In this document: one piece after another, positions 46,429-64,000 of the stretch
How the letters are laid out: the number at the start of each line of letters is the position of its first letter
How positions within the stretch are numbered: the first letter of the stretch is position 1
NCBI GenBank assembly: GCA_023920165.1
Contig: CP089278.1
Location: 310,001 to 374,000, forward strand
DNA length: 64,000 bases
Reading direction: 5' to 3'
Origin: Curvularia clavata
Lineage: Eukaryota
Notes under the pieces: model-generated
Database searches by the model: none
What the model was told of the DNA's origin: nothing
Seen by the model: only the letters and a program-made list of their open reading frames with translations
Made by a program: the position numbers and the translations under genes

Positions 46429-48234
46429 TCATTCCTCAGGATCACGGCCTCCACGCTTCCTCATCTCCTCAAGGTATTCCTCATCTGTCTCGAGATCGAA
46501 AGGCACAGGACGGGTGATGGGTTCAATTGAGGCGCCATGTGCTTCGAGCTGCTTGAGACGTCGGGCAGTTTCAGGCTTGGTGGTGTTGACACTATACAGC
46601 TTTACGCGGCTACAAATGGTGTTAGAATAGCGAACTCTGGAATTTCTAATGAGACTTGAAGGGGATGCTTACTGGCACGAGGATGTTACGTGAAGATCCC
46701 AGTTCCTGCACAAGATTAGCTGGGTTCAGTACATAACGGACCATCCAAGGCTCACCATGCGCTCCGGACGAAGGTTGGCTGGGTCTATCGTTGATGTCAG
46801 CAACTCTTCTCTTCGCAATAGATAGAATGGACTGTTGGTGGTCCACAAAAATACAAGATACAAGTTACTTACGTTCAAGGCGTCATCCCAGCAGCGCACA
46901 CAAAATTCACTAGAGACAATTAGCTCCATTCATGAGTACAGCGACAGCAGAACTTACAGCCAGCCTTCAGCATCGACAGGAACATCCATCCACCATGTGC
47001 GCCAGGCATGGTAGTACTTCTTGCTCATGTTTTCGTACGGTACTTCATACCAAACACCGCCTCCATCGTTGCTGACTTCGACTCGCTCTGGCCAGCCGCT
47101 GCCACTGTATGCCCAGCCCGTCATGCGGATCTTTCCATCATGGATAATCACATCCTTTTCGACTGGCGTCATGATAGCACTAGAAACCGGCATGGTTTGG
47201 ATACTGAAGCCATTGCTGTACGTCACGTTTTGCTTGCCTTTTTGCGGCGTGTAGTACAGATATTCTTTCATCTGCACAGGTGCCATGGAAGGGCTGTCAA
47301 TGACGTTGATGCGTGTAAGCCACTTGCAGCTCCTTGCACCAATGTAGCCCATCACCACTACACGAAGTGGAGCGCCATGAATGGCAGGCAGCGGCTCCCC
47401 GTTCATCTCCCAGGCAAGCATGACTTCATTGAGGTTCACCTTGCGAGTTGGTACCGACACTGCATAGTTGTAGACCTGTCCCTTCTTGAAGTATGTGTCG
47501 GCACCGAAAAACTCGACGTGCTTTCCTTCTGGCTTGATGCCACAGTATCGGAGGACCTTCTTCAGACTGACGCCAACATAACGCGCGGTACCGATGGCGC
47601 CCTCACCCCAAGGCGCGTTGATCAGTTCGTCCCCATCTCCAGGGTAGTCGTGGATTTGCTCGATACGACGTGTGCCACTGCATTGTAAAGTAACGCAGGT
47701 GTTCATGCGCGGGAATATGCTTTCATCCTGGAGTTCTTTCAAAGTAATCTTCTTTGGCGTGTCAACGAGGCCTTCAACCTCGAAGTAGTATTTTTCAGGA
47801 TCGATCTCAGGAACTCCGCCGTGATTTCTGATGAAGTGGTCTTTGTTATTGGTAATCTCGGTCTCGACTAAGCGCTTTCGGGGCGGCTCGCCATTGTAGG
47901 GGAACTGCAAGACGTGCACCATGTCCTCGCTCTTCTCTTTCTTGACATATTCCCACGAGATGTCCGGCAGGTCCTTCGTGGTCTTTCCCAGGGCATAATG
48001 GTAGTGCTTCCAGCGTACACCTTCAAGCACAGGGTTGGTTTTGGGGAGTGGGAGCAATTGGAATTCGGGTGGCACGGGGAAATCATATTTCGCTAGGATT
48101 TCTGCAGCCTTCTTCTTCTTCTCAGGATACCTCTCCCACTCAATGTATCCTTTCCATCCTTCTCTCTCTTCTGGGAAATCGGGCTCCTCTGTCAAAAGCA
48201 CGAAAGGTTTCGCGTTGGGTTCAGCAGGCGCCAT
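46429..48234 (-). CDS. Sulfite oxidase-family molybdoenzyme (Moco-binding + dimerisation domains, no heme b5 domain)
   Basis: YNGEPP, HFIRNHGGVP, TLQCSGTRR (Mo-ligand Cys), WGEGAIGTA, LAWEMNGEPLPAIHGAPLRVVVMGYIGARSCKWL. Four 3' exons give EFCVRCWDDALN|TQPTFVRSAW|NWDLHVTSSCH|RVKLYSVN..RDPEE*. Confidence 0.92.
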
Positions 48235-50465
48235 TGTTAATGGACAATGCACAAGTTGTGAAGAAGGTAACTTTCAAGGCTTTCCACAAACAAGATTGGG
48301 GTACCTCTGTTAATTAGTGCGTCTCTGATGTTGCGGCAGCTCGAGCTCTGCATGTCATAGTAACAGGCTAATTGCTCATTCAGCATGGGTCATGCCATTT
48401 TCATCCACGGTTGCCGCAAGTAATGCATGCATGTCGCTCAGATAACATGAAATCCCGCCTATTAGCGAATTATATGAACAGTGACGTCGACAATGCGGCA
48501 TTTGAAGCAGTGTTCTGATATACAACTGCGTCACTATGAAGGGTACTAGACAGCTGGCGTGCAGGGGTTAAACCATGCCAATCGATTCCGACTGGTCCGG
48601 CAGCTGAGCTGCGAGCCAAACAGAGACAGGGGTTGCGCAATGCGCATCTCATTGATGAGTAACTATTTTGGAAGCTGGGTATGAAACCTAACCCTTGTTA
48701 AGCAGAGCTTGATTGATGACGTGCATAACATAATCGTTGTGAGATGCGGTGACAGCAAACCTCGACGAAGAATTCAGAAACCGGATTACAGGTCATGATC
48801 AGATAAAACAAGGAAAACATTACGATGACCGTTAGAGATGGAGAAAGCTGAGAATGGGGATAGTTTGAAGTCCGCGGCAGGTATTCCCACGTGGGCTTAT
48901 CGGCGATGTGCATGATGCTAGGCCCAGAACGGCGGCGTGGCCGACGACCGAATACTGCAATGCGCTCTTCGTACGACCATCCTCCAACGTACAAAAAGCG
49001 TCGATACATAGAATAATGCTTGTCTGTCGCATCCGTTATGTTCTTCTTCTGTTTCCCCCAGATTTTGAGTTCACTGCCAGCACAGTGATGCCCTCATCAT
49101 TTTGTTTCGACTTGAGGACAGGCCTGGTCTGTCTACGACAGTTTTCGCACAGGGTAACTTCCTATAGTATTTGAAACGCTTATAAGTTCCGGAAGGGATT
49201 AAATCTGTCGAGTGTACGAAGGCAAAGGAGATGAATAGCCACGCCACGCCATGCCGTCGCCTGCGCTAAACGGCGCACCAAAAAATGACGTAGAGAACTA
49301 TTTCTTTCTGGCCGTCAAGCAATCATATCTCCTACACTGTCTGAAAGAAATACATTAGGTCTCTCTCTAGCCCACTGAATGTCAAAGATCGAAGAGAGAG
49401 CTTTGTAGCCAAAGTGGCGTTTTGAAGGGGGGACTCGAGCTTCAGTTCTGGGCTCCGCATCTCGAATCAAGTAGAGGACTGTACACCGTCTTTTGAGCTC
49501 GATCACTCGGCTATTCTTGGGTTTGCATCTGCGTTTGCACCGTGATTTGCCCACGACATCGTGAAACCCCATCGAATCTTAACAATCTGCACTCCATTAT
49601 ACAATGTTCCTCTCAAGCATCATTCCACAGGTTCAAACAATGTCGTGTGAGCGTTTTCCCATGCGGTGACTACGCTAAGGGCATCCCTTGCGAAACTTGA
49701 CCGCATATGGATCTCTCCTGCGGTAAGTAACGGGAACAGGCGGGTGTTCCTGCGTAGGCTACTATGTATAGACGCGGGCCCTCCCTAGCCACAAAAATCT
49801 CCGGAAGTAGCCTTGCCAAGGTGTAGGGACAAACACATCTGTATATGTATCCACAGCTTTCACGTCCCTGCAAACTCTCCATGGGGCATCAGGACAGGCG
49901 AAGCTCGGGACTCACAGTGATGGCACACTACTCGTTTGCCTATCCTAGGGGCTGCACGGTCCATCTTCCTGTTGCCTCCAAGGAATGAGCAAAGAATGGG
50001 GTATATGCATATGGGAAAGTGGAAACAGAAGTTTTTACAGTAACATACCCTGCCACTGAGGATGATACGAGTGGCAGGCAGAGGCTACACGTGGGCAATC
50101 AAAAAACCCGTACACGGCTAGCCACTGACATGTATACCCGTATCTAGCCCGTAGAGAACCTTGCCCTTCGCTGTCTTCTGGATTTAGATGCATCTACGTC
50201 ACCGCTCTCATTTAGCCATGGCAAGTCTGCGGTCTAGTGACTGAGTTCTTGTCACGTGTGTCTGAAAGGTGGGCCTCTGGGTGTTTGTGAATATAGTTAG
50301 CGCCAGGCAATAACAGAGCAGAGCCAGTGAAAGCAGCGCCTTCCCAAAGTCCACAAATACCGCTCTTTCCCCAACCCAAAACTTCAACTCAACCTTGGCA
50401 ATCTCAACTCCACACTCTGATACCAACAACCACGAGTGTTTTTCCATCAAGATCCCATCCAAAAG

Positions 50466-52687
50466 ATGGCAGTCAACGCGCAGACTGTGCTCATGCGCAA
50501 GGCGAGAGACGCCGTCACGTTTCCCGTAGCTGAGCTCACATCCATGTTCTGGGGCGGGTAAGTCCTACACATCCTTGCCACTCCCAAGCCTACCACTAAC
50601 CCCCTGTCCCAGCGATGCAGAAGTCCGCGAGCGTCGTGCAGCCTTTGAGCGTGTTGAGAAAGTACTTGGAACACACGACACGACCAAGCTCCCACGCTGC
50701 TACACCACAACCTCTCGCCAGGACATCTTCCTGCAGGGTCTCAAGATGGGCAAGGCCTGTCTGGATGACATGGTTGCGTATAACCACGGCCAATTTATCT
50801 GGGTGACCCCACGTTACGACCTCACAAATGCCAGGTAAGTTCGATGTCTGTTTGGTCAAGTGCCTTGCTAATCATGTCCAGCCCTTTCGGCCACAAGGCA
50901 ATCTTGTTTGAGCCTGCGATCGAGCACAACGGTACGCCGGAGCAAAAGGCGTTTTGGCTTCCGCTGGCCAGGTCGGGACAAATCCTTGGTACATACACAC
51001 AGACGGAGCTAGGCCATGGATCCTTTGTACGTGGTATTGAGACCACCGCTACCTTCGATATGGCTACCGACGAGTTCGTCATTCACTCGCCTACCGTGAC
51101 GTCGAAAAAGTTCTGGCCTGCCGGCTTGGGCTTCTCGACTACTCATGCTGCAGTCATGGCAAGGCTTATCGTCGGCGACAAAGATTACGGTCCGCATATC
51201 TTCCTGGTACAACTTAGGTCTCTCGAAGACGGAACCCCCATGCAGGGGATCAGGATGGGCGACGCTGGCCTCAAGTACGGGTAAGTGCTTGTTCATCTGT
51301 AAAAAGTCAGAGATCCAAATGTGACTAACTGTAGATGAACAGTTACAACGAGGCAGACAACGGCTTTGCTTCCTTCGACCATGTCCGCATCCCTCGGTCG
51401 CATATGCTGATGGCCCACAGCCAGCTTGCTCGAGACGGTACATTCACGACGGAATCGCTAGGCTCAAAGCTATCATACTCGGTTATGCTGCTCGTCCGTA
51501 GCAAGATGCCTGCTGTCTTCACTCTCAAACTCGCACAGGCCTTGACCATCGCGACTCGCTATTCTGTTGTGCGACAACAAGGACTCGGTCCTGCAGGCTT
51601 CGAAAGTGAGGCTGCCATCATGCAGTACAAGCATCAGCATTTCAGGCTGCTCACCTTAATCGCAAAGGTCTATGCCATGTCGTATGCCTCAGGCGCCTGC
51701 GGAGCTCAGTACTCCAAGATGCGACAGATGCAGGAGAAAGGCGACCACTCTCTCCTACAGTCTGTACACGTGCTCACCGCTGGATTGAAGGCATATGTCA
51801 CCTCAGAGGCGGTCGATGGCGCTGAAGAAGCCCGAAAGATGTGCGGCGGCCATGGTTACATGAACATCTCAGGCCTGCCAGACATTATTGGCTCTATCGC
51901 CGGTAGTGCGACCTTTGAAGGAGAAAACTATGTGCTTTGGCAGCAGGTTGCCAGACATCTGCTCAAGCAGATGGATTGTCTGCTGGCAGATGACCTGCTG
52001 GAGCCAAACACACAGTACCTGGCGGACATGGACGACCCGAATTATCCCTATCTGACCGATTGTATTGGTCTCGACGACCACGATACCCACGTTGAAATCT
52101 TTCGCCACCGTGCACGACGTCTGATTGCCAAGGCCTATACGGCAGTTCGCACGTCGAGCAAGACCCCCGAGGACGCTTGGAACGAACATATGATGCTGCT
52201 CATCTCCGCTTCGAGGGCTCACATTGAATACTTCATTGTGAAAGTCTCCGTTGACTATGTCACCAATCTGCCTGACCACACCAATGACATCCTTCGTTGG
52301 GTCTTAAAGGCGGTTGTGGGTCTCTTTCCCCTCTCGACCATCGTCAACCCTAGGTCTGTCGACGCGCAGTCGTTCATCGTAACCAACAATGGTATCCCGT
52401 ATCTGTCACCAGGCCACCTCACCGAAATCAACAATGAGGTCAACGAGTTGCTAGAGTTCCTCTTACCCGAGGCCATTGGACTCACGGATGCCTGGGACTT
52501 CTCCGACGCCAGCCTTTGCAGTGCCATTGGCATGCGCGATGGCGATATCTACGAGAACATTATGCGCTGGGTGGAACAGATGCCCATCAACCAGGACACG
52601 TGGGAAAACAACGGTGTCCCAGACGGTTGGAAGGAGTATGTCAATCCGGTTCTGAGGCGGGAGCTGTCGCGTAAGCCGAAGTTGTAG
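50466..52687 (+). CDS. Peroxisomal acyl-CoA oxidase
   Basis: Exons 50466-50557, 50613-50834, 50882-51280, 51343-52687. YTQTELGHGS, ETTATFD, KFWPAGLG, DNGFASFDHVRIPR, RYSVVRQQ, RKMCGGHGY, catalytic TFEGEN, and a C-terminal PTS1-like -PKL. Confidence 0.93.
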
Positions 52688-53350
52688 AGAGTTTGTCTTT
52701 CTTGGACCGCAAGATACCCGGTGCAGATAAAGGAGGAGAATCAGACAGGGGGAGGTGATTATACAGAGAGAAGTCAGATAAGGGAAGGGAAATCCGATGA
52801 TGGAGGAATTATCAAAGCACACTAGATTGATGGAATAGGGTTTACAACTCAGGGAGGCATGATCTAGTAACAGTAGATAAATCGAGACCTCTCTTCATCA
52901 TTCTTTTTCTCCTGTCTGTTGAAATGGAGGGCAAGAAGAAATGATGGTGAATGATGCTAGGAAACACCCGGAATATGATGGACAGTATGTATCAAGCGAA
53001 GAGATACTTGATTGTATGTACAATGTCATTGGCAGGACCATCATCACCAGCTTCTGCCAATGATACTGCATCGTCGCCGCTCAACTTGTATAGAAAACGG
53101 TGTTCCAAGTGGAAGCACGCAGGGAAGCAGAGAAGAAGGGAGCCGTTTAATCAACGACATCCTTAGGTGAAAAGAAGCGAGAATCAACAATAAACAGCGA
53201 CGAAATAGGCGTGTCTGCTTGTTGTGAACACTGCTGGATCGATACGTCACAGCCTCGTGCCACATCCAGCTCACAAGGTGCATGTAAAGGATATTCTCTT
53301 CCTCTTCTCATGATGTAATATTCAAATTGTAAACATGCTTGGAAACAAAG

Positions 53351-54253
53351 TCATGACACTGGGGGCGATGCGAGTCCAGCACGCTTCTTAGGTTGGGTAT
53401 CGGGTTCCTCCTCTATGCGGCGCGTCTTTGCGCCAATTGCACCGCCAGGGTGATTCCGCCTAAAGACAGCCTTTGTGTCGTCCTGATGCAGGGCCTCGGC
53501 GAGCGTCAATGCGAGCATGTCGCCGACGGCAATGGTGACGGTTGTGCTGGTGGTGGGGGCGCACACGCCAAACGACACCTCCTCGAGCTCGTGAATGGGC
53601 GCGGGCAGCAATATAGAGTGCGGTCGGCTTCGCAGTAGCGGGCATTCTGAGGGCTTGGTATGTGATGTAATGGCAAGAATGGGCGTGTCAGAGGGAATGT
53701 GGTCAAGGAGAGCAATGAGCTCCGCGGTCTTGCCAGAGTAGGATATGAACATGACGGCATCGTTCTATCACAGAAAGTCAATGCTGGGTTCTGCGGGCTG
53801 CTCTGTAGACGAGGCGCCATGGCTCACCTTTCTGATGTCACCGAGATCCCCATGCAGCGCTTCTGCGGCGTGCATAAAGGAACTCGCAATGCCCAGGCTC
53901 TTCATGGTCGCGACAATCTTGCGCCCTACGAGGCCGCTTTTGCCAACGCCGCACACAATCAGCTTGCCTCCAGCCTCACTGTTTTTGGTGATGACTTCGA
54001 CCGCTTGGAGCAGGCCATGGCGCGCGACGTGGTCAGACTGGTACAAGAAGGTGACCTGTGACAGCGCAGTGGCGGCGGTAGACAGGACATGAACGGCGCG
54101 CGAAAGAAGACGCGTTCCCTTTGGGTCGTCGGCAGTCAATGGCGGGGTAAGCAATTCTGCGTCAGAAAGGGCGCGCTTGCGCTTGAGGGACACGGGAGAG
54201 GGAGAGGGAGACGAGGAGCGTGGTGGGGTATTTGCGAGGGGCTGCGCCATCAT
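53351..54253 (-). CDS. SIS-domain sugar-phosphate isomerase (KdsD/KpsF-like, no CBS domains)
   Basis: Two exons (intron 53765-53827): GVGKSGLVGRKIVATMKSLG..MHAAEALHGDLG..ISYSGKTAEL..APTTSTT..GDMLAL..F..NHPGGAIG. Confidence 0.88.
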
Positions 54254-54802
54254 GTCGTGAGGTATGTGTAAATGACCCAGCGCCGCTGGCAGACGCAGGG
54301 TCACCGTATATCAAGACGGCCTGGCGATCTTTGCAACGGGTCTACACATCTTCGATCTAAGTTAGTCGGGCTCGGGCAGCGCCGGAGACAAAGTCGTATC
54401 TAGTAGGCGTAATGCACTGGTCCAAAGAAGCGACAAGAGGCGATTCCATGTCATAGCACGGCCTGCCATGGCACCGCTTGATTGGAAACCATGCATACAG
54501 CCCGACCGCGGCGACGCTGATAAAATTGGTCCGTCGGCTCGTTCGTATACATGCTTTGTCAATGTTAAGCCGGATCCCGAAGCTGATTCATGTGCAAGGA
54601 GTGGTGGTGAAAAATGCATTGCGACATTGGCGCTACTTCTGACTTGCATCCCTCGACGGCCCGACGCTAGGCCGCATCTAGCCTCAGCCGCTGTCATGAT
54701 TCGAGGCCCAGCCCTCGTCGCACGTTTCTTGCATGCCAGCCTTCGATCGTTGGACACAATCAACCATGGGTATTTGTGGATAGCTGCCTACCCGAGCACC
54801 AT

Positions 54803-55327
54803 CTACCCTGTCAACGGCGCCGCGGATGCCGCTGCAGCGAGTCCCGTTCGCCGAGCCCCCATACACGTCAAGCCCACCTCCACGCCGTCCAGCCTCGCCA
54901 TGCCCAGTTCCTTCCTGTACAGTGCCTGCGCCTGCTCGTTGCCCGTCAAGAGAACCATGAACCGGAGGCATTCCATGCCAAGGCAAATCTCGCGGCAGCA
55001 AGCGATGAGCCACTTGCCCACGCCTTGCCCTTGGTGCTCGGGAGCAACGTAGACATCCGTCAAGTAAGCGAGCGTCGTGTAGTCAGTTATCATGCGCGCC
55101 ATTCCAACGGGTGTTTTGACCCCGTTCGAGACCACGAAGACGCCAAGGGTCAGGCTATTGTCGAGCATGGTCGTCAGCGTCTCGGCAGGGACTGGGTTTG
55201 CCCAAAATACAGCCTCCGTGGCATAGACATCTTGGACAAAGGCATGGGGAAGAAGCGACCGATTAGATGAGATGAGGTAAGTGTGTGCGCCAATTGAGCA
55301 CTCCCATTCGAAGATCTTTTTGTCCAT
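54803..55327 (-). CDS. GNAT family N-acetyltransferase
   Basis: VGMARMITDYTTLAYLTDVYVAPEHQGQGVGKWL (acetyl-CoA Q/RxxGxG motif) and ALYRKELG. Confidence 0.9.
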   Translation of the reverse strand: MDKKIFEWECSIGAHTYLISSNRSLLPHAFVQDVYATEAVFWANPVPAETLTTMLDNSLTLGVFVVSNGVKTPVGMARMITDYTTLAYLTDVYVAPEHQGQGVGKWLIACCREICLGMECLRFMVLLTGNEQAQALYRKELGMARLDGVEVGLTCMGARRTGLAAAASAAPLTG

Positions 55328-55974
55328 CTTTTTGAGAAATGATGCGAATTCGATGGTGCCAGGCGAAGACGATCAAGGCCATACAAATACTCCGAGGAGT
55401 ACTGAGTCACATCCTGTCTGACCTTCCTGTGTTGTACTTTGGCAATAGATAGTCCTGGTTTTGCGCCCTAGACGCCGAACGGCCAATGACTGTACACCTC
55501 CATTCCGCTGTCGGCGGGAACGCCGTCTCCTCGGCGGGTCTTAGCTATACACCTAGAATATGATTAATCTAGCCAAGAATGTATAAAACTTAAACATTCC
55601 TCCGTGTCAAAAAGCAGGGTCCGCGGAATTCAAGAATCGTGTGTCGGCTTAGAGTATGTACTGTATACGCCTGGAGTACAGTCAGCATGCTAGTAGGGGA
55701 GAGAGAGGGGCTGGGCAGTGGGTATCTCGGCCGGATGTAAACTTTAACTAACAAGAGCGTCATCTTTTGGCTCTGCTGACAGCGGCTTATCCAGTGCTTG
55801 GATGAAGTTATGAAGTTCACTTCAGTACCCGTGCTGGTGGGCAGATACGCGTGATCACGTGGCTGGGCGCCGACGCTAGGACATTCATTGCATTTGCACC
55901 TGCCATGCCATATCTCATGTCGTAAATTCATTCCTCATTTTTTTTGGTTATTTCTATCTAACTCTAGACAAACT

Positions 55975-58067
55975 CTAGATTGAAATCCATCGTCCCATCC
56001 AAGTGTCGACGATCTGCTTCGCCTCGTCTACCAGGCCCATGTCCAACAACAGCTGGGAAGTTCCACGCACAGCCGAGTCGAGTGCTGAGAAGATCCAAGC
56101 GTGGGTGTAACTTGTGTGCTCACCTGCAAAACAGTTAACTTACTTGTACGTCTAAGAACAATGTTAATTTACTTACCAACGAAGATGGACTTGTACTCGG
56201 TCTTGTAGTAGGCGGGCAGGAAGAGATCTTGCTGACCAATAGTAGGTGAGGTCCAGGCACCAGCTTGGTGTTCGTCGAGTTCCCAGCATTGACGGTTGTA
56301 TGCACCGGTGAACTGTTCGTCAGCTACATCGCCGTGGACCTCGACCATGGCGCGTTGGACCATAGCAACGTGATCCTGTTCGCTCAGGGCGGCTACGGAG
56401 CGGGCGAGATTACCGGAGACATACGAGCCCAGAATCACACCCGGACCGGTCGAGTTGATCTTGTACGAAGGATAGCAGACGCTGCCGATACCTGGAATGT
56501 CGACTGAACCGCATCCTCCAATGATTGGTGGCGAAAGCTTCTCCCAGAAACGAGTCTTGTAGTGTAGAGATACCTTGCACGACTGCTGGTAGTTCATCTC
56601 GCTAATGGCACGAGACAAGAGCGATGAGTATCTCGGGAGATCCCAGAGCCTAACCTTGGAGAAAGGAACAGCGACGACGGCGTAGTCGTATTCCTCGCTC
56701 TCGGTCTTCATCGCAAAGGGATCGTTGCGCCACTCCACGGAAATCTTGTCCTTCTTTTCGTCGTACTTCAGTCCGGTGACCTTGCGGCCCAGAGTCAACC
56801 GGTCCTGGACGTGCGGGTAGAAGGCGCGAGGAAGCGACTCCAGACCCTTGTCAATGGTTCGCCACGTGGTTGCGCCAAAGTATGCAGTATCATATTCCCA
56901 GATGGGATCCTCGGCATTACCGGTGATGTAGTCAGTTACATCAGCGCTCTGGTTCAGCGCATATCGGACGTACGCGGCTTCTGACCAATGGAACAGACCC
57001 TTCTCAACAGCATGCTTATGAGCCTTGTAAACGTTTTGGTGCATCTCGCGGATGACCTCTGGTGTCGTTCCGATGAAGTTTTCCAGCTCCTCGGTGACCT
57101 TCTCAACAGTCTTCTCATCTGGACTGCCTTCGACATCCGGCAAACTGTATGCAGTGGCGTTACTCCTAAGCTGCGCAGCGCTGGGAATGCGTCCATTAGG
57201 AAGGCGGTAGCCATTCGAGCTAGCCGGTACGTTCGGGCTGGACTGGATCCATGGGATGAAGTTGACAGCAAGGTCGCTGTCGGGGCCTCCGTTCATTTTG
57301 GTGAGAACTTCTCCAAGCTGGAAGACCATCTTGTGATCCTGGATGTCCAGGGTCTCGTTTGTTTCTGGGTAGCGAGTTGATACTGGAAAACGCATGGGAC
57401 CCATCTCTTGGTACTGGTATTGATCGGGTGTGCTTCCAGCAAGGTACTTGGTTCGGATGCGACCACCGATTCGCTGAGAAGATTCGATAATGTGCCAGTC
57501 GTGAATGCCGACTGAATCCAGCAGATGACTAGTCATCAACCCCGACATTCCTCCTCCAATGATAGCAATTCGCTTGCTCTTCTCCACCGCAACGTAGGAA
57601 GCATTGTTCTGCTTGCTCTTCATGTATGCTACACCGTCGAACCAAGGACCCATGGCGTCAGCCACTTCGGAGATATCCTCTCGCTTTTTTGGCTGATGTT
57701 TAACGCGAATTGGAGCTGAACGTCCAATGAGCGTCGATCCGGAATAGGCATGGAGACAACCGCCATATGTAGTATCCGCTGGTACAACCCAGACGAAACG
57801 TTCAGGACGAGCCGATCGCTCGATGTAATGTGAGGCAACATCGTGGTGCCTATCTCCATGGCTTTTCATTCCACATTCGCCATATACCAAGCGAACTTCG
57901 CCCTCGAAATCCTCATCGGCGAATTCTACATGGATGTTGTGTACTGAGTCCGACTTGACCTCGAGGGGCTTGAAGAAAAGAATATCTGATCGAGAGGTAA
58001 CCGGGCTGGCAATAGCACTGCCAGCCAAAGACAAAGCTGCCGAAGAGGCTGTAATGAGTCCCTTCAT
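55975..58067 (-). CDS. Secreted L-amino acid oxidase (flavin amine oxidase family) with pro-region
   Basis: Start MKGLITASSAALSLAGSAIA (signal peptide); KKR at residues 127-129; IAIIGGGMSGL FAD motif; RIGGRIRT; EMGPMRFP. Last exon (after intron 56124-56175) reads GEHTSYTHAWIFSALDSAVRG..WMGRWISI*. Confidence 0.9.
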
Positions 58068-59734
58068 GTTGGCCTTGAGCGAGTTTGTTTGAGATGGTGA
58101 GATTCTACAGCAAGGAGAATATCTTCCATTCAAATACCTTTTCCATTTTCATACTTCGGCTGGCAGGTCCTTACTAAAATGAGTATATTGAACATTGATG
58201 TTGGTCACAAATGGCTTATCATCGTAGGGCGTATGCCAATGGCTACCCGAAGCTATCATCAAGGCTCTCTATCGTATAGTGGCTGCAAACAATATCGAGC
58301 TTCGCGGCCGAGATAAGGGCAGCATGACATAGTCAGCAGTAAGTCTTGACAAAGCCGGCTCCCAGGTGCGGTTTCCCACGCGTCGAGATTCCCGTTACAG
58401 GTATCCTACAAAATGGACTCGAAGCGAGATGCAGTAGCGTAGTATGTGGCAGGCATTAGTGTGGAGTTGCATCTCGTGGCAGCGATCGGCACTTAACGGG
58501 GATAATTTTCTGTTTACCGAAAGATAACGAATATCAGTAACGGCTCCGTTCCGTCGGACACATCGGATGCCTGTAGGCCGTTGAATATGAGTTTGCCGGG
58601 ACACTTCCATACGACTTCAAGATGCTACGTCGAGTCATTGCAATGATAACGAAGGTCAAGCAGGCAAATCCCAAAGTTTCCGCAGAAACCACAATGCACT
58701 GTATCTGCATAGCGTCTTGATCCGCTGACGTTATAGTGATACTTCGCTTGGAAGTGTTGCTCAGAGTTTGGTAGCATCCCACTCTCCCGGAAGGCTTGCG
58801 CTTCCTTCCGGGTCTTAGGTGCCATGACCCGAGTTTCAGAAGCTCCGCGAGCCCGCGAAATCGGGTGGCCCGAGAAGCGCAGAATAGTAACAGTAAAGTT
58901 TTTACGGTAATGATGTTAGAGGATTACTTGGCGATGCTTAGGCGTTCAGGAATGGAGTTGGTCTTTGTGATAGCGAATCACGAACCGCTCGGCAAGCCAT
59001 GACGATCCACAAGTGGAGCCTGGCGATAGCAACCACCTATCCCGTGGGGCCTGAACAAGTGGTTCTTATCTCCAACTCCAACTACCTTTATCTTGGGTTA
59101 CGTTAGGTAGCGACCGGTTTTCCATTAGGCGTAATACACGCGCGTTACGATAGGAGATATCTTGGCGCCCAGACGCAGTTTATCCTCCAGCCTCGGTGTT
59201 TTCTCAGCCCACCACGCCCTATGTCTAAACGCAGCGAATCGGAATCTCCTTCCTTTCTAGAAAGTTTCTGTATATCTCCAGCTTTTCACTGCCCCACGTG
59301 AAATAGTCCAATCGTCTGGCGTGGGGCTGCCAATGCCAACGCCACAAGAGTCCTGCCGCGCTGGTGGAAAAACTTCGGCCTTTAAGCCGACGGCGAACTA
59401 CAAGCAATTACGAATGGAATGTACAATTTATTTCTAGGGGTAAGATACCAGGCTCTGGTTCTGCGAACCATTAGTACCGATGGCGTTCCCCGCTGACATA
59501 GGCAACAAGTCTTGTCCGGTATAGGAGAACTCGCAGCTCTTGGAAGTCATGGCATTCGGCTCAATACGGACATGATGTCTTGGTAAGTGCTCGAGTCTCG
59601 ACTAATACTGAGTCGTTACTTTACTTGTATGTATATAAATGTTGAGTAGTAGCACGTATTTCATGTATCCCAGCAACCTTCACAGCTACTGTCTCGATTA
59701 GCATAAGTACAATTTTAGACATATCACAATCATC
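58068..59734. promoter_or_regulatory. Divergent LAAO/Rid promoter with multiple GATA (AreA/NIT2-type) sites
   Basis: HGATAR matches on both strands at about 58216, 58311, 58522, 58644, 58968, 59066 and 59088, plus further GATA cores. Confidence 0.5.
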
Positions 59735-60299
59735 ATGGTGTCGTTTACTTCGATCTTTACTACATTTCTGGTGGTTACCGGTGCTGCCATTGCCAAACCC
59801 ACACCTAAAGTAGCCGAACAACCTGTCGTCACCTACCTCGGCACCCAAGGGCCAATTCTATGTAAGCACACTTTTCCTCGTTGCAACTACATATGCTAAC
59901 CTCACTCTCAGCAAGCGGAGCTTGGACTTCCAAGGGCATTGTGTACACATCCGGAACCGTGCCCTCTCTCAACGGAACAATCGTAGCAGGCGGCATTGAA
60001 GCCCAAACCGTACGCGAAACTTAATCCCTCGACCATTTTTAATTTACTTACTTGTACAACTCTAGGCCCAAGTCATTAAGAACATTGCCGCTGTGCTCGA
60101 GGAAGCGGGTACATCGTGGGACTATGTCATGAAGACAACCGTTTTCCTAGCCAACATGTCCGACTACACTGCCATGAACGAGGTATATGCTGCTATGCTT
60201 CCGAACCCAAAGCCTGCACGTACTGCGGTCGAGGTGGGCAAGCTGCCGGGAAACTTTCTCATTGAGGTTGAGGCTATTGCTGCGATTCCTGATTCGTGA
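59735..60299 (+). CDS. RidA/YjgF/YER057c/UK114-family imine deaminase with N-terminal signal peptide (152 aa)
   Basis: Exons 59735-59861, 59912-60009, 60066-60299: MVSFTSIFTTFLVVTGAAIA-KPTPK..GPILSSGAWTSKGIVYTSGTVP..GGIEAQTAQVIKNIAAVLEEAGTSWDYVMKTTVFLANMSDYTAMNEVY..KPARTAVEVGKLPGNFLIEVEAIA. Catalytic Arg and Glu are retained. Confidence 0.9.
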
Positions 60300-60406
60300 G
60301 CTTGAGCATAGGAAGGAAAAGATGGGAAATCAAATGTAATGAACTAGATATGAGTTATGAATCGATTCAGCATTTTCAATTGTTTCTCGAGGACCAGTCA
60401 TTAATA

Positions 60407-61230
60407 CAGTGGGGTGACAAAAAGAAAAAGTACAAGAAAAAATAACTATATCTCAGCTTATAGAATAGCTAAAAATAAGAAAACTTAACTCTTTTATAGA
60501 GATTTACTAGATTTTAGAGACAAGTGTTTTAAATACTGCTTAGTAATGTTACGACCCTGGAAAACCATGACACGCACGAGCCAGTAAGCAGTTTGGAGGA
60601 TTCCCACGTACGGGCACTGCGCCGCAATCCTGCAGCCGTGTCGCACCAGGTCACGTGATGTGCTCTGTGATCTGTAACGCTTGGCGGAACAGAGTAATAG
60701 AGCAACATGCATTTAATCTATTAATCTATAGTACTTAGCACGATAGAGCAACAGAGCACTCTATATAACACCTTAGTATATAGGAATAGACATTAAGCTC
60801 TTATAGCTCGATGTGTTCAACTTAAGTTACGAGTATAGTACCTACAATACAATAGTTACTGCAGAACCTTTGTTTATAACACACTGTTGCTTTATCCGCG
60901 AAAACCAACCAAAGAAGGTCTTGACACCAGAAGTCTTATATTACTTCCACTCGAGATTATACTCTTAACAAGTAAGTATATAGAATGTATAAATTAGCAC
61001 TAAAGTAGAGAGAAAAATGAATGCCAACTTTAAGCTATTATTTCGCGCTTATTTTTTTAGATTTTATATATATATCTATATATAGATAGATACTATTAGT
61101 CTATATATATATTATATATAGTTTTAAGTTATAGTTGTCTATCTAGTTAAATAGCTATATATATAAGTTATATTTTATTATTTAAATTAGATAATAATTA
61201 TAAATTACTATCTAATACTTAGTATACCAA
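60407..61230. mobile_element. RIP-degraded Tc1/mariner-like DNA transposon remnant (interrupted by solo LTR)
   Basis: TA followed by CAGTGGGGTGACAAAAAG (Tc1-type terminus) marks the abrupt switch to AT-rich, TpA-rich sequence. Confidence 0.45.
60547..60970. mobile_element. Solo LTR with 5-bp target-site duplication
   Basis: Starts TGTTA, ends TAACA, and is flanked on both sides by AGTAA (60542-60546 and 60971-60975). Confidence 0.85.
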
Positions 61231-61602
61231 TGTTACAAGTAATAAGGAAGGATCTCTCCTTGACGAGGCCGCATGGTAAGGGACTATCGGGCGACACGTC
61301 AGAAGGTTATGATCTCCGCGGGGCGAGATCACGTGATGCGCCATCTCGCCAAAGCTAGCCATCTGAGATGGCAGAGCATAATAAGATGGCAGCGGCATCT
61401 TAACCATCTCGCATAAGCAAGATAGACAAGATGTCAGGACTAGAAGTAATAGGTATAAGAATGTATTAGATTTCATTATTTACACTCGTTATAGTTAACT
61501 TAGCAAAGTATCTTTCTATAGTTACCTTTTATACTTAGATTGATACTAGTTATTCTATCTTCCAATAGAATTAGTTTTATCTATCTTTGTTAATCCCTAC
61601 TA
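61231..61602. mobile_element. Second probable LTR (degraded)
   Basis: Starts TGTTA and has a GC-richer core with the same TCACGTGAT palindrome as the first LTR. The right end is uncertain (possible CCAA duplication with CA>TA end). Confidence 0.45.
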
Positions 61603-61630
61603 CCAAATCGCTAGATAACTATTAAGAGTA

Positions 61631-62187
61631 ACGTAGTTTATAAGCGAGTCGGTCATATAAGCGAGTTGGTCACCCCTCTAGCTTTAATCACCCACCTTAA
61701 CTTTACGCGTAATATCTCTACACTACGCTTCTAAATTAACTTCTCACGAAGAAGATATTCAGCTTGCCCTTTCTTCTCTAGATAGTAATTAAATCTAGAA
61801 TATCTAACGCGCTACTATAGCCTTTAATATTCCGAAATTAATACTAATCGACTAACGCGCTAGAAGACACGCGTGGCGTAATTGCTAGCCTAATTTAAAG
61901 AAGCTATCGCAGCTAGAAGAGTAAGTAATTACTAGCTATATAATTGATCTCAATCTATATAGATTTACGTCTATCTATACTACTATACGAGATATAGCTG
62001 ATAAGCTACTAGCTACGCGCGACGCTAGCCAGGTTAGCATTTACTAGCCGCGCAACTTTGTCAAGCGTACAGACAGTCTTATAACGCGTTTTAATTAAGC
62101 GTATAATAGGTAGAGAGCCCTATATAAAGATCTAGTCTTAATTAAAAGCTAGTTTAAGCTTATAGAGCAGACGAAGACTAAATATAG
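61631..62187 (+). mobile_element. Fot1/pogo-family DNA transposon 5' part, heavily RIP-mutated transposase
   Basis: TA|ACGTAG terminus with direct repeats TAAGCGAGT(C/T)GGTCA (61641, 61658). Translates as EEDIQLALSSL..AFNIP..NLKKLSQLEE*VI..IRDIADKLLA..*PRNFVKR..R*RAL (HTH psq/CENP-B) with many stops. Confidence 0.8.
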
Positions 62188-64000
62188 TGTTAAAGTATGG
62201 GGTAGCTACTTATTCTACTAGTAGTAGACTCAGAGGTAGCTTGATCAAAGACTCAAGTAAGTAGTATATGCTAGGGGAGAGAGTTGATAGACACAATTAA
62301 CTTTGTATAAACTGCTCTAGTTTCTATCTACTAGCTATTCTACTACTATATATATTGGCTAGAGTAGATTCTAGAAGAATCTATCTAGTAGTAGCTTGCG
62401 TAATCTTTGGCGTCATAGACAGATGTCTATAGATCGATTATAGTCTTGATAGATCGACTATAGATTATAGAATCCAGGTGTGACTAAGCACCCAGATTCT
62501 ATCGTAGAGTAGCTGAGTAGCTTATCTACAACACGCCCCCTTAAGCTAGGAAGCTGTAATTTGGGATATATCTACTAGATTTGCTCCAAGTAGAAAGTCT
62601 CGAGTCTTGTCGGCGCTTGTAGCCTTAGTGAGACTGTCGGCTAGTAGACAGCTAGTGTTTTGATATACTAGCTGGATCTGTTTGGCTTCTACTTTCTCGC
62701 GAATGAAGTAGTATTGTATGTCAATATGTTTTGTCCTCGCGTGGTAGGCAGGATTTTTGGTGAGTTGAATGGCGCTTTGGCTGTCCGAGTAAACAGTAGT
62801 AGCTGTCGTGTTGGTGTCCGACAGTATTGGATATAGAGCTTTAATCTCTTTAACAAACTGAGTGAGATATATGCTCTGTTTGGCTGCTTCTCGGTAGGCC
62901 ATGAATTCAGCTTCTGCGCTAGATAGTGCCACTGTCGGCTGTAGCTTAGATAGCCAAGAAATGGCACAGTTGTTCTTGTTTAACTGAAGTAGAAATATGT
63001 ATCCAGTGGTGGATCTTCTACTATCAAAGTCGCCCCCCCAATCTGCATCAGTAGATCCGATTAGCTTAATCAGATTTGAGCTATTTGGTACAGATTGACT
63101 GTCTTTGGCGCTGTTTTGGCTGCCAGTATTGAGCTGATAGAGTAATCCTAGCTGTCTTGACTAGGATAGATATCCCCATAGGTAGTCTAGGCTGCTGAAA
63201 TGCTCAGTGCTTGGATTGGCCATAAATCTAGATAAAAGATTGACTGCGTAGGTAATGTCTGGCCGAGTAAAAATCGAGAGATAGATAAGAGAGCCAATTT
63301 GTTGTTGGTAAATATTGGTTGCGTTTGGAGTAGCTATTTGGCTGTTTCTGCTGAGCTTGATATTCTATTGCAGTGGAGTCTGCCTTAGCTTAATATCTTG
63401 CTTATTGAATCTAGCAAGTAGCCTTTGTAGATAGTTTTCTTAGATAATATAGATCGCTCGTCTAGATCTAATTACTTGGACTCCAAGAAACTCTGAGACG
63501 TCGCCTAGATCTTTGATCTCAAGCTTTGAGATAGCTGTTAGATCTTTAAATAGCTTGTATATGCTTTATTCTTGTTCTCCAAAAATAAGCAAGTCGTCTA
63601 CGTGAGTAGCTATAACAAGCTTCTGCTCGACATTGATATAAGTGGCAGTGTCAATAGACAGAGATTTGAAGCCTAGTTGTCCGAGTAGGCTTGCTAGTAG
63701 TTTCTGCCACTGTCTACTGGCTTGTTTTAGCCCGTATAGAGCCTTGTTAAGTAAGCAGACGTGCTGTGGATAGTGCTGATCTTGAAATCCTTCTGGCTGC
63801 TCGACGTATATAGTCGTGTCGATTAAAGCATTTGGGAAAGCTTGCTTGACATCCCAGCTTTTTATATGCCAGTTTTGAGCTGCTGAAATGGCTAGTAGTA
63901 GCCGGATTAGATCAGGCCGAGTAGTATTGGCAAATGTCTCGTAGTAGTTGACTCCAAGCTCTTGTTGAAAGCCTTTCGCTACCCAACGTGCTTTGAATAT
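62188..64000 (-). mobile_element. Ty1/Copia LTR retrotransposon 3' part (RT, RNase H, PPT, 3' LTR)
   Basis: Minus strand: [87 protein letters not shown]. Polypurine tract 62534-62540 and LTR 62188-62533 with TG..CA ends. Scattered stop codons. Confidence 0.93.

Follow-up and report, generated by a model that had tools for sequence, protein, structure and literature searches.

A divergent L-amino acid oxidase and signal-peptide Rid gene pair in Curvularia clavata, a candidate extracellular amino-acid deamination system

A divergent gene pair in Curvularia clavata

We analyzed a 64,000-nucleotide stretch (hereafter the window) of contig CP089278.1 from the genome of Curvularia clavata (Pleosporales), in which a locus delimited by the last bases of two stop codons (55975-60299) carries two divergently oriented genes. 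One encodes a putative secreted L-amino acid oxidase (LAAO) and the other a small RidA-like protein, also with a predicted signal peptide. The initial annotation had described two genes diverging from an intergenic region of about 1.67 kb, one an LAAO and the other a Rid-family protein with its catalytic Arg and Glu in place, both with N-terminal signal peptides, and this description is confirmed, with the signal peptides as predictions. The LAAO gene lies on the minus strand (join(58067..56177, 56123..55975)) and is interrupted by a single 53-nt GT..AG intron; its product, a precursor of 679 amino acids (aa), agrees at 100% identity with the protein yc1106_06753 (P0082) annotated in C. clavata and matches the families PF01593 (Amino_oxidase, 2e-38) and PF13450 (1.9e-06). 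The Rid gene, on the plus strand (join(59735..59861, 59912..60009, 60066..60299)), has two introns and encodes 152 aa, and its third exon alone matches PF01042 (Ribonuc_L-PSP, 8e-24) and the RidA model TIGR00004 (3.5e-23). The deposited model of this second protein, yc1106_06754 (P0211), is longer (183 aa), as it consists of the same 152 aa followed by a 31-aa tail, produced by an extra predicted intron that removes the stop codon (window 60297-60420). This tail has low folding confidence in the predicted structure. The 152-aa form is supported and the 183-aa model is over-spliced, since an RNA contig (run X9, see below) is unspliced over 60066-60325 and the orthologues have 152 aa. The start codons of the two genes are separated by a spacer of 1,667 bp (58068-59734), in which searches for tRNAs, for Rfam families and, in five open reading frames (ORFs), for Pfam domains all came back empty; a hidden gene in the spacer was therefore ruled out.

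The oxidase and the architecture of its precursor

The dinucleotide-binding motif of the oxidase, IAIIGGGMSGL, lies at aa 167-177, with G171, G173 and G176 invariant, and the best PDB sequence matches are L-amino-acid, L-glutamate and L-lysine oxidases. The arginine of its GPMRFP motif (Arg226) is aligned with that of the "GAMRIP" motif of an LAAO chain and is invariant in 63/63 orthologues; by analogy to snake-venom LAAO structures, we take it to be the residue that binds the alpha-carboxylate of the substrate. An AlphaFold (AF2) model computed from 63 orthologues (predicted local distance difference test score, pLDDT, 77.9) has as its top fold match the L-lysine oxidase precursor 7d4d (Z 27.5, root-mean-square deviation (rmsd) 3.1, 455 aligned residues), followed by HcLAAO4 (Z 26.9) and snake LAAOs (Z ~25). 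All of the top 20 fold matches are oxidases of the L-Lys, L-amino-acid or L-Glu type (Z 24.8-27.5), with the same order given by Foldseek, and MAO (Z 23.3 for MAO B) and putrescine oxidase rank below the LAAOs; this ranking is supportive and not decisive, because the gap in Z is small. Over its full length, the protein is 41% identical (E 1e-169) to P0444, the 90% cluster of which holds the Neurospora crassa LAAO (P23623). The family is widespread, with members in Aspergillus (62% identity), Penicillium (60-65%) and the Colletotrichum type (48%), as well as in Pezizomycetes, Mucoromycota and one chytrid. Assignment of the predicted oxidase to the L-amino-acid oxidase group, N. crassa type, is thus supported by the invariant GPMRFP arginine, the fold matches and the identity to the N. 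crassa enzyme.

Upstream of the catalytic part, the model and the alignment place an all-beta domain at aa ~29-123, which includes the highly conserved stretches GGCLHAYSG and GRSAPI and the invariant Cys65 and Cys104; all six cysteines of the protein are conserved in 99-100% of 89 orthologues (the Met-starting entries of 660-700 aa among 120 listed). The linker that follows (126-150) has a pLDDT below 50, and it includes Arg129, which is invariant, and Lys128, with a conservation of at least 90%. None of the solved structures among the fold matches extends over the beta domain, the matched ranges of the model starting at 129-165 and the domain not having been searched on its own. A synthetic construct of the mature N. 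crassa enzyme ncLAAO1 (P0533) has 567 aa against 696 aa in the precursor, hence 129 residues fewer, and begins in the same linker; cleavage in N. crassa, after LKAR, falls ~10 alignment columns past the Curvularia KKR site. Niedermann and Lerch are said to have described, in 1990, a maturation of the N. crassa LAAO by loss of 129 residues. The Curvularia beta domain of ~100 aa is probably a pro-domain cut off at a Kex2-type Lys-Arg site.

A Rid protein with conserved catalytic residues

A search for longer relatives of the Rid protein gave 81 proteins, mostly of ~150 aa and mostly from Dothideomycetes, Chaetothyriales and Sordariomycetes, with one Leotiomycete. Both Arg127 (PARTAV) and Glu142 (IEVEA) are invariant in the 53 full-length members aligned (53/53), and Arg127 shares its alignment column with the arginine of the "PARS" motif in solved chains of RidA and YabJ. 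We take these residues to correspond to Arg105 and Glu120 of Salmonella enterica RidA, the arginine presumably being the one that separates imine-hydrolysing Rid proteins from Rid4-7. An N-glycosylation sequon, N63-G-[ST], is present in 52/53 orthologues. As modeled, the protein has the RidA/YabJ (chorismate-mutase-like) fold, with top matches to YabJ (5yu2, 1xrg, 1qd9), Mmf1 (3quw) and RidA (8v8r) at a probability of 1.00 and template modeling (TM) scores (target) of 0.72-0.88. Members of the RidA subfamily form homotrimers whose active sites lie at the subunit boundaries, and they deaminate imines and enamines.

When compared to PDB sequences, the Rid protein (P0011) matches bacterial (Firmicutes) RidA and YabJ proteins with E ~1e-24 and yeast Hmf1 and Mmf1 with E ~1e-16. 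The signal-peptide Rid clade is thus nearer in sequence to bacterial RidA/YabJ than to Hmf1/Mmf1, an observation from which we make no claim of a bacterial origin. A look-up in the Atlas returned only the protein's own Ascomycota cluster.

Export signals

Each N-terminus has a hydrophobic run free of charged residues and, after it, small residues at positions -3 and -1, with predicted cleavage after AIA in either protein (before KP in Rid and before SP in LAAO). Using a rule based on the mean Kyte-Doolittle value of the best 9-residue window and an uncharged run of at least 15 residues, we found such signals in 65 of the 77 Met-starting Rid homologues (4 of the 81 have no Met start and were left out) and in 72 of the 89 full-length LAAO orthologues. 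The 12 Rid proteins that fail the rule comprise seven models without exon 1, two bacterial-type proteins and three borderline cases, and the LAAO failures are mostly borderline or have extended N-termini. Neither LAAO nor Rid has a second hydrophobic segment. Furthermore, a Rid orthologue from Stagonospora sp. SRC1lsM3a (44970|Stasp1, P0036) is part of a published secretome predicted by SignalP 4.1/TargetP/TMHMM (PMC4951024, S5 Table). Based on the hydropathy rule, its conservation and this SignalP-based list, both proteins are predicted to enter the secretory pathway and, in our reading, would be exported to the outside.

Peroxisomal, ER (endoplasmic reticulum)-retained and GPI (glycosylphosphatidylinositol)-anchored forms were ruled out, as the C-termini (...GRWISI and ...AIPDS) have none of the known signal motifs and no hydrophobic tail. 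In four Rid orthologues from Chaetothyriales (P0053, P0054, P0055, P0056), a short spacer that terminates in KR or RR separates the signal peptide from the conserved mature start; judging from its sequence, this spacer looks like a Kex2-processed pro-peptide, a sign of Golgi passage. The L-PSP/YjgF proteins present in the experimental secretome table of PMC4951024 are flagged as not predicted secreted, and the same experimental secretome contains several flavin adenine dinucleotide (FAD) amine oxidases (e.g., 46217|Altal1, detected and predicted secreted), none of which could be linked to this LAAO family. The passages on "amine oxidase" in PMC7902709 and PMC4951024 were ruled out as referring to this enzyme, since those passages concern copper amine oxidases.

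Conservation of the pairing

Adjacency in other genomes was judged from locus tags, consecutive accessions and shared contig sizes, rather than from fungal DNA. Locus tags or accessions show the pair side by side in C. clavata and in no fewer than 12 other genomes, including two members of the Chaetothyriales (Table 1). In addition, both proteins are assigned to a contig of one and the same size in Stemphylium, Setomelanomma (32,240 bp), Lojkania, Delitschia (21,600 bp), Aaosphaeria, Karstenula, Dendryphion, Polyplosphaeria, Clohesyomyces, Sporormia, Corynespora and Eremomyces, and three more contigs (8,448, 13,152 and 25,029 bp) match in size for LAAO and Rid. No Dothideomycete or Chaetothyrialean species listed has the two proteins on different contigs. 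The initial annotation had presented the pairing as something to be sought in other genomes and its lack of conservation as a ground for rejection; in Dothideomycetes and Chaetothyriales this objection fails, because adjacency is kept across two classes of Ascomycota. Conservation extends over Pleosporales and Chaetothyriales and, for the N. crassa-type LAAO, does not include the Sordariomycetes, in which this LAAO and the signal-peptide Rid lie on different contigs or have distant tags. A metagenome synteny scan with over-general patterns (two bacterial-type RidA rows) kept 80 loci, 44-59% identical, none of them fungal and presumably bacterial, and was not used.

Table 1. Genomic arrangement of LAAO (N. 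crassa type) and signal-peptide Rid genes in fungal genomes.
Arrangement	Species or strain	Identifiers	Basis
Adjacent pair	Curvularia clavata	yc1106_06753/06754	locus tags
Adjacent pair	Parastagonospora nodorum SN15	SNOG_13149/13150, plus three strain pairs	locus tags, consecutive accessions
Adjacent pair	Alternaria incomplexa	J4E90_010919/010920	locus tags
Adjacent pair	Alternaria rosae	KAH6865432/33	consecutive accessions
Adjacent pairs	two further Alternaria		consecutive accessions
Adjacent pairs (two)	Pyrenophora tritici-repentis		tag or accession
Adjacent pair	Rhinocladiella mackenziei (Chaetothyriales, Eurotiomycetes)	Z518_06048/06049	locus tags
Adjacent pair	Cyphellophora europaea (Chaetothyriales, Eurotiomycetes)	HMPREF1541_08341/08342	locus tags
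Near-adjacent pair	Plenodomus biglobosus		locus tags two apart
Unlinked	Stachybotrys chartarum 7711	Rid S7711_01804; LAAO S7711_01226	
Unlinked	Stachybotrys elegans		different contigs
Unlinked	Paramyrothecium foliicola		different contigs
Unlinked	Plectosphaerella cucumerina		different contigs
Unlinked	Verticillium dahliae	Rid VDGD_02062; LAAO VDGD_06185	
Unlinked	Verticillium nonalfalfae	Rid D7B24_005398; LAAO D7B24_000271	
Unlinked	Verticillium longisporum	Rid BN1723_005252 / 005294; LAAO BN1723_009445	
Unlinked	Pyricularia grisea	Rid PgNI_02074; LAAO PgNI_04134	

Transcripts and the intergenic spacer

Logan contigs of four public runs (X1, X9, X10, from a related organism, and X12, a root metatranscriptome) were placed on positions 55500-60800. 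They derive from RNA, as they carry splice joints; absent cover in such contigs, as over Rid in X10 or over the spacer in X9, does not count as evidence of absence. Contigs of X1 and X9 contain the two Rid introns (59861>59912 and 60009>60066, GT..AG), and the LAAO intron (56123/56177, minus strand) is found in a contig of X9. In this last run, the sense-spliced LAAO (55919-57228, 57251-57559 and 57632-58083) and the spliced Rid (59681-60325) are found on separate contigs, with no cover of the spacer. X12 contributes one small contig per gene, at an identity of at least 99%.

Transcription of the opposite strand of LAAO was found as well. X1 holds a single contig of 4,037 nt that extends from 55938 to 60249, with plus-strand GT..AG joints at 56145>56246 and 59438>59509 in addition to the Rid introns, and X10 holds a contig of 1,963 nt over 56157-58192 with plus-strand joints at 56192>56246 and 56930>56997 and 20 loose A's after 58192. 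The antisense RNA thus appears polyadenylated in X10, and in X1 it may continue through the spacer into Rid, although a contig cannot prove a single molecule. The intron upstream of the Rid start codon (59439-59509) implies either a 5'-extended Rid transcript or a read-through RNA. Overall, the plus-strand RNA of 55938-58192 (to 60249 in X1) may be an antisense or read-through regulatory transcript.

The spacer is rich in GATA sequences: it has 26 GATA cores against 14.5 +/- 3.3 in dinucleotide shuffles (a count reached by 0/300) and 11 HGATAR sites against 5.6 +/- 2.2 (reached by 6/300), the window-wide mean being 4.3 per 1,667 bp. This enrichment hints at nitrogen control of the AreA/NIT2 type.

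Feature coordinates and genomic surroundings

The features of the locus are listed in Table 2. Downstream of Rid (60500-64000), the GC content falls to 32-43%, marking the edge of an AT-rich, repeat-derived stretch, and a fragment of a Ty1/copia-type reverse transcriptase (PF07727, 3.2e-39) lies further on at 63569-64000 (-). On the other side, the minus strand encodes a GNAT acetyltransferase (54806-55372), an ORF with a weak SIS-domain match (53354-53764) and a sulfite-oxidase-like molybdopterin oxidoreductase (46957-48273), and the plus strand encodes an acyl-CoA oxidase (50784-52684). The neighbors within 46957-55372 have no evident tie to the pair and include no biosynthetic core gene.

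Table 2. Features of the LAAO-Rid locus (positions in the window).
Feature	Position	Strand	Evidence
LAAO exon 1: aa 1-630 and first base of codon 631; predicted signal peptide, probable all-beta pro-domain and linker, then FAD and substrate domains	56177..58067	-	translation
LAAO exon 2: aa 631-679 and TAG stop; GEHTSYTHAW C-terminal flavin-amine-oxidase motif	55975..56123	-	translation; X9 splice joint; invariant columns 631-651
LAAO intron, 53 nt, GTAAGT..CAG on the minus strand	56124..56176	-	sequence; X9 joint 56121>56175 (CT..AC, cut +2)
LAAO predicted signal peptide, aa 1-21, MKGLITASSAALSLAGSAIA followed by SP	58005..58067	-	hydropathy rule; model pLDDT <50 for residues 1-26
LAAO N-terminal all-beta domain and linker start, to dibasic Lys128-Arg129 (57681-57686); probable pro-domain	57681..58004	-	strands 30-123, conservation
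LAAO Arg226 codon, invariant GPMRFP motif	57390..57392	-	alignment with LAAO "GAMRIP" arginine; 63/63 orthologues
Rid exon 1: aa 1-42 and one base; predicted signal peptide MVSFTSIFTTFLVVTGAAIA followed by KP (59735-59794), mature start	59735..59861	+	translation; joint 59861>59912 in X1, X9
Rid exon 2: aa 43-75; N63-G-T sequon (59971-59979)	59912..60009	+	translation; RNA contigs; sequon in 52/53 orthologues
Rid exon 3: aa 76-152 and TGA; PF01042 core, Arg127 (60219-60221), Glu142 (60264-60266)	60066..60299	+	Pfam, alignment; X9 contig unspliced across stop
Spliced antisense RNA over LAAO; introns 56146-56245 (X1), 56193-56245 and 56931-56996 (X10)	55938..58192	+	GT..AG letters checked
Plus-strand intron (70 nt) upstream of Rid ATG	59439..59509	+	X1 joint 59438>59509 (GT..AG, cut +1)

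A candidate extracellular deamination system

We consider it fairly probable that the pair forms a coupled extracellular system for the deamination of amino acids, in which Rid speeds up the hydrolysis of imino acids. This accords with the central idea of the initial annotation, which the data partly support and put on a better footing. From the gene structures, transcription, family membership, conserved residues and conserved adjacency observed at this locus, we infer the cleavage of the pro-domain, the export of the proteins, the action of Rid on the LAAO product and nitrogen control. The LAAO precursor would begin with a signal peptide and a beta pro-domain of ~100 aa with disulfides, continue with an exposed linker that includes a Lys-Arg (Kex2-type) site and end with the FAD oxidase, which outside the cell would convert L-amino acids to 2-imino acids and H2O2. 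The RidA-like protein (13.8 kDa, with its own signal peptide and an N-glycan sequon) would then convert the imino acid to 2-oxo acid and ammonium, so that ammonium would be freed near the hypha and reactive imines kept from accumulating. The likely role would be the scavenging of nitrogen from external amino acids, with the GATA-rich spacer hinting at its regulation, and oxo acids such as indole-3-pyruvate, together with H2O2, might have side effects at the plant interface.

Relation to known systems

RidA and Rid2 have been reported to hydrolyse LAAO-made imines in vitro, and prokaryotic Rid genes to cluster with FAD amine oxidases, in a survey of 981 prokaryotic genomes (Niehaus 2015; PMC4433059), the main text of which does not contain "fung", "secreted" or "signal peptide". 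Bacterial systems such as the lao-cccA-ridA cluster of Gluconacetobacter diazotrophicus, described as required for auxin synthesis via indole-3-pyruvate (PMC5053998), or DadA/DadY and DauA of Pseudomonas aeruginosa, resemble the Curvularia locus in that an oxidase or dehydrogenase adjoins an Arg-bearing Rid, according to the accounts in PMC4433059, PMC5619798 and PMC9714295. They differ from it as prokaryotic operons, mostly cytoplasmic or periplasmic.

A closely similar arrangement is known from the alga Chlamydomonas reinhardtii. According to PMC10805672, LAO1 is a periplasmic LAAO induced by nitrogen starvation, which frees ammonium from external amino acids, and its gene is clustered with the putative RidA gene LAO2, both being drawn in the periplasm; PMC5053998, citing Vallon 1993 and Merchant 2007, mentions a periplasmic complex of a catalytic LAAO subunit and a RidA subunit. 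The likeness to this extracellular LAAO of another eukaryote is one of gene arrangement. In contrast to the alga, with its reported complex, the two genes of the fungus diverge, both products have predicted signal peptides of their own, and the oxidase has a predicted Kex2-type pro-domain. The initial annotation had stated that characterized eukaryotic RidA proteins are cytosolic, mitochondrial or plastidial, a view that overlooked Chlamydomonas (PMC10805672, PMC5053998). Its remark that it was aware of no description of the pairing in fungi agrees with our full-text literature search, which found no signal-peptide Rid and no LAAO-Rid pair described in fungi (subscription journals and most supplements were outside its scope); likewise, searches by SNOG_13149, SNOG_13150, Z518_06049 and yc1106 returned no study of these genes, supplements again being outside the scope. 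The idea of the pairing is therefore new for fungi as far as the search reaches, and not new in kind.

As for the oxidase, it shares with the characterized N. crassa enzyme 41-43% identity from end to end, beta domain and basic linker included, as well as the motifs GPMRFP and GEHTSYTHAW. As outlined in PMC8364938, ncLAAO1, purified and cloned long ago, carries a predicted ER signal, accepts a very broad range of substrates and has Km values of 5-10 uM; the same source describes its production as a secreted protein. It differs in that the Sordariomycete LAAO of this type is not beside a signal-peptide Rid. The secreted L-lysine alpha-oxidase of Trichoderma viride, the activity of which is reported to be lowered by an N-terminal propeptide (PMC7844570), is the best structural match of the catalytic part (precursor structures 7d4c/7d4d, with the values given above). 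At 21-23% identity, this match covers model residues ~157-674 and leaves out the Curvularia beta domain (29-123). To our knowledge, the T. viride enzyme has no Rid partner.

Weighing the evidence and the alternatives

Several observations count against a coupled extracellular system. In eight or more species or strains of Sordariomycetes, the signal-peptide Rid and the N. crassa-type LAAO are not neighbors, and no Eurotiales Rid of this clade is among the 81 matches, though Penicillium and Aspergillus have close LAAO orthologues. LAAO would thus work in many fungi without this Rid, since Eurotiales show none; this absence is weak evidence, because the search works by shared words. Within the Rid protein, the position of the RidA "GPY" tyrosine (presumably Tyr17) is occupied by Ile in 46 of 53 members and never by Tyr, and three full-length orthologues score 97.4, 98.5 and 93.3 bits on TIGR00004, below the cut-off of 106.25, the match of full-length members beginning at profile position 17-19. 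Because of these scores, we name the protein RidA-like and not certified RidA. The rule used for signal peptides is crude, and the predicted secreted Rid orthologue 44970 occurs 0 times in the experimental secretome table S1 of PMC4951024 (one study, one medium). The initial annotation had also proposed co-regulation, for which the presence of both mRNAs in X9 and X12 speaks; this is weak evidence, because the runs were picked for holding this stretch, and X10 has no cover of Rid. Moreover, a spliced plus-strand (antisense) RNA spans the entire coding region of LAAO in two organisms (X1 and X10), so that simple co-regulation from one shared bidirectional promoter is not the whole story. Finally, the value of an extracellular catalyst is not self-evident, because imino acids also hydrolyse unaided.

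The same chemistry might take place elsewhere, with Rid residing in the cell wall or in the lumen of the secretory pathway or vacuole and guarding against imino acids from LAAO that is active before or without export. A signal peptide indicates ER entry only, which together with the missing orthologue in the experimental secretome fits such a location, and the pro-domain with its Kex2-type site would imply that LAAO becomes active at a late stage of the pathway, where amino acids in the lumen could be its substrates. Yet an ER-retention tetrapeptide, a further hydrophobic segment and a hydrophobic tail at the C-terminus are missing from both proteins, the homologous N. crassa LAAO, with its predicted ER signal, is described as produced in secreted form (PMC8364938), and PMC10805672 locates the Chlamydomonas counterpart in the periplasm, which makes a luminal Rid unlikely in our view. 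The two proteins might also not be biochemical partners at all, their genes being kept together by shared regulatory DNA or inertia and Rid acting on another imine or enamine or having no catalytic role. The unlinked Sordariomycete genes, the Eurotiales LAAO orthologues that seem to have no Rid, the scores below the RidA cut-off and the lost tyrosine would all agree with this, to which we nevertheless give only a small chance: adjacency is kept in Dothideomycetes, where gene order decays fast, as well as in Eurotiomycetes (Chaetothyriales). Moreover, the association of an oxidase with a neighboring Rid recurs independently in bacteria and Chlamydomonas, as portrayed in PMC4433059, PMC5053998 and PMC10805672.

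A role in host interaction rather than nutrition, in which extracellular L-tryptophan would be turned into indole-3-pyruvate, an auxin precursor, or H2O2 and oxo acids would act at the plant surface with Rid steering the imine to the oxo acid, is suggested by the link of LAAO-RidA clusters to indole-3-pyruvate and auxin in G. diazotrophicus and Chlamydomonas (stated in PMC5053998 and PMC10805672), by the plant-associated Pleosporales that make up most named carriers, by the fragments of both mRNAs in the root metatranscriptome X12 and by the AT-rich, retroelement-bearing stretch that adjoins the pair. However, the pair is also found in rock-inhabiting, saprobic and animal-associated Chaetothyriales (Rhinocladiella, Cyphellophora), and the GATA enrichment points to nitrogen control, so that we regard this role as very unlikely to be the primary one. 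A bolder version of the coupled extracellular system, which we would rate as rather improbable, is that Rid is a dedicated extracellular subunit or close partner of LAAO, as reported for Chlamydomonas, and receives the imino acid directly from the oxidase, and that the locus additionally holds a sense/antisense transcriptional switch. Its two states would be a sense LAAO mRNA with a short Rid mRNA, or a long plus-strand RNA running antisense through LAAO into Rid, and this would represent antisense control of a nutrient-scavenging enzyme. If Rid were such a partner, fungi and algae would have independently reached a two-protein "ammonium-releasing machine" outside the cell.

Implications

The coupled extracellular system that we favor follows a logic already known from Chlamydomonas and bacteria, and many fungi run the oxidase without a Rid partner, which tempers its value. 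Many of the carriers are pathogens or endophytes of cereals and vegetables, and ammonium, H2O2 and oxo acids including indole-3-pyruvate may be relevant at the plant interface. In enzyme technology, a natural helper of fungal LAAOs could raise oxo-acid yields. The pair also offers a straightforward way of testing whether catalysed hydrolysis of imines is important for the capture of nitrogen from amino acids. Rid proteins have been understood as intracellular guards against reactive imines and enamines, and a conserved fungal clade destined for the secretory pathway, encoded next to an exported LAAO, would extend this role to the outside of the cell.

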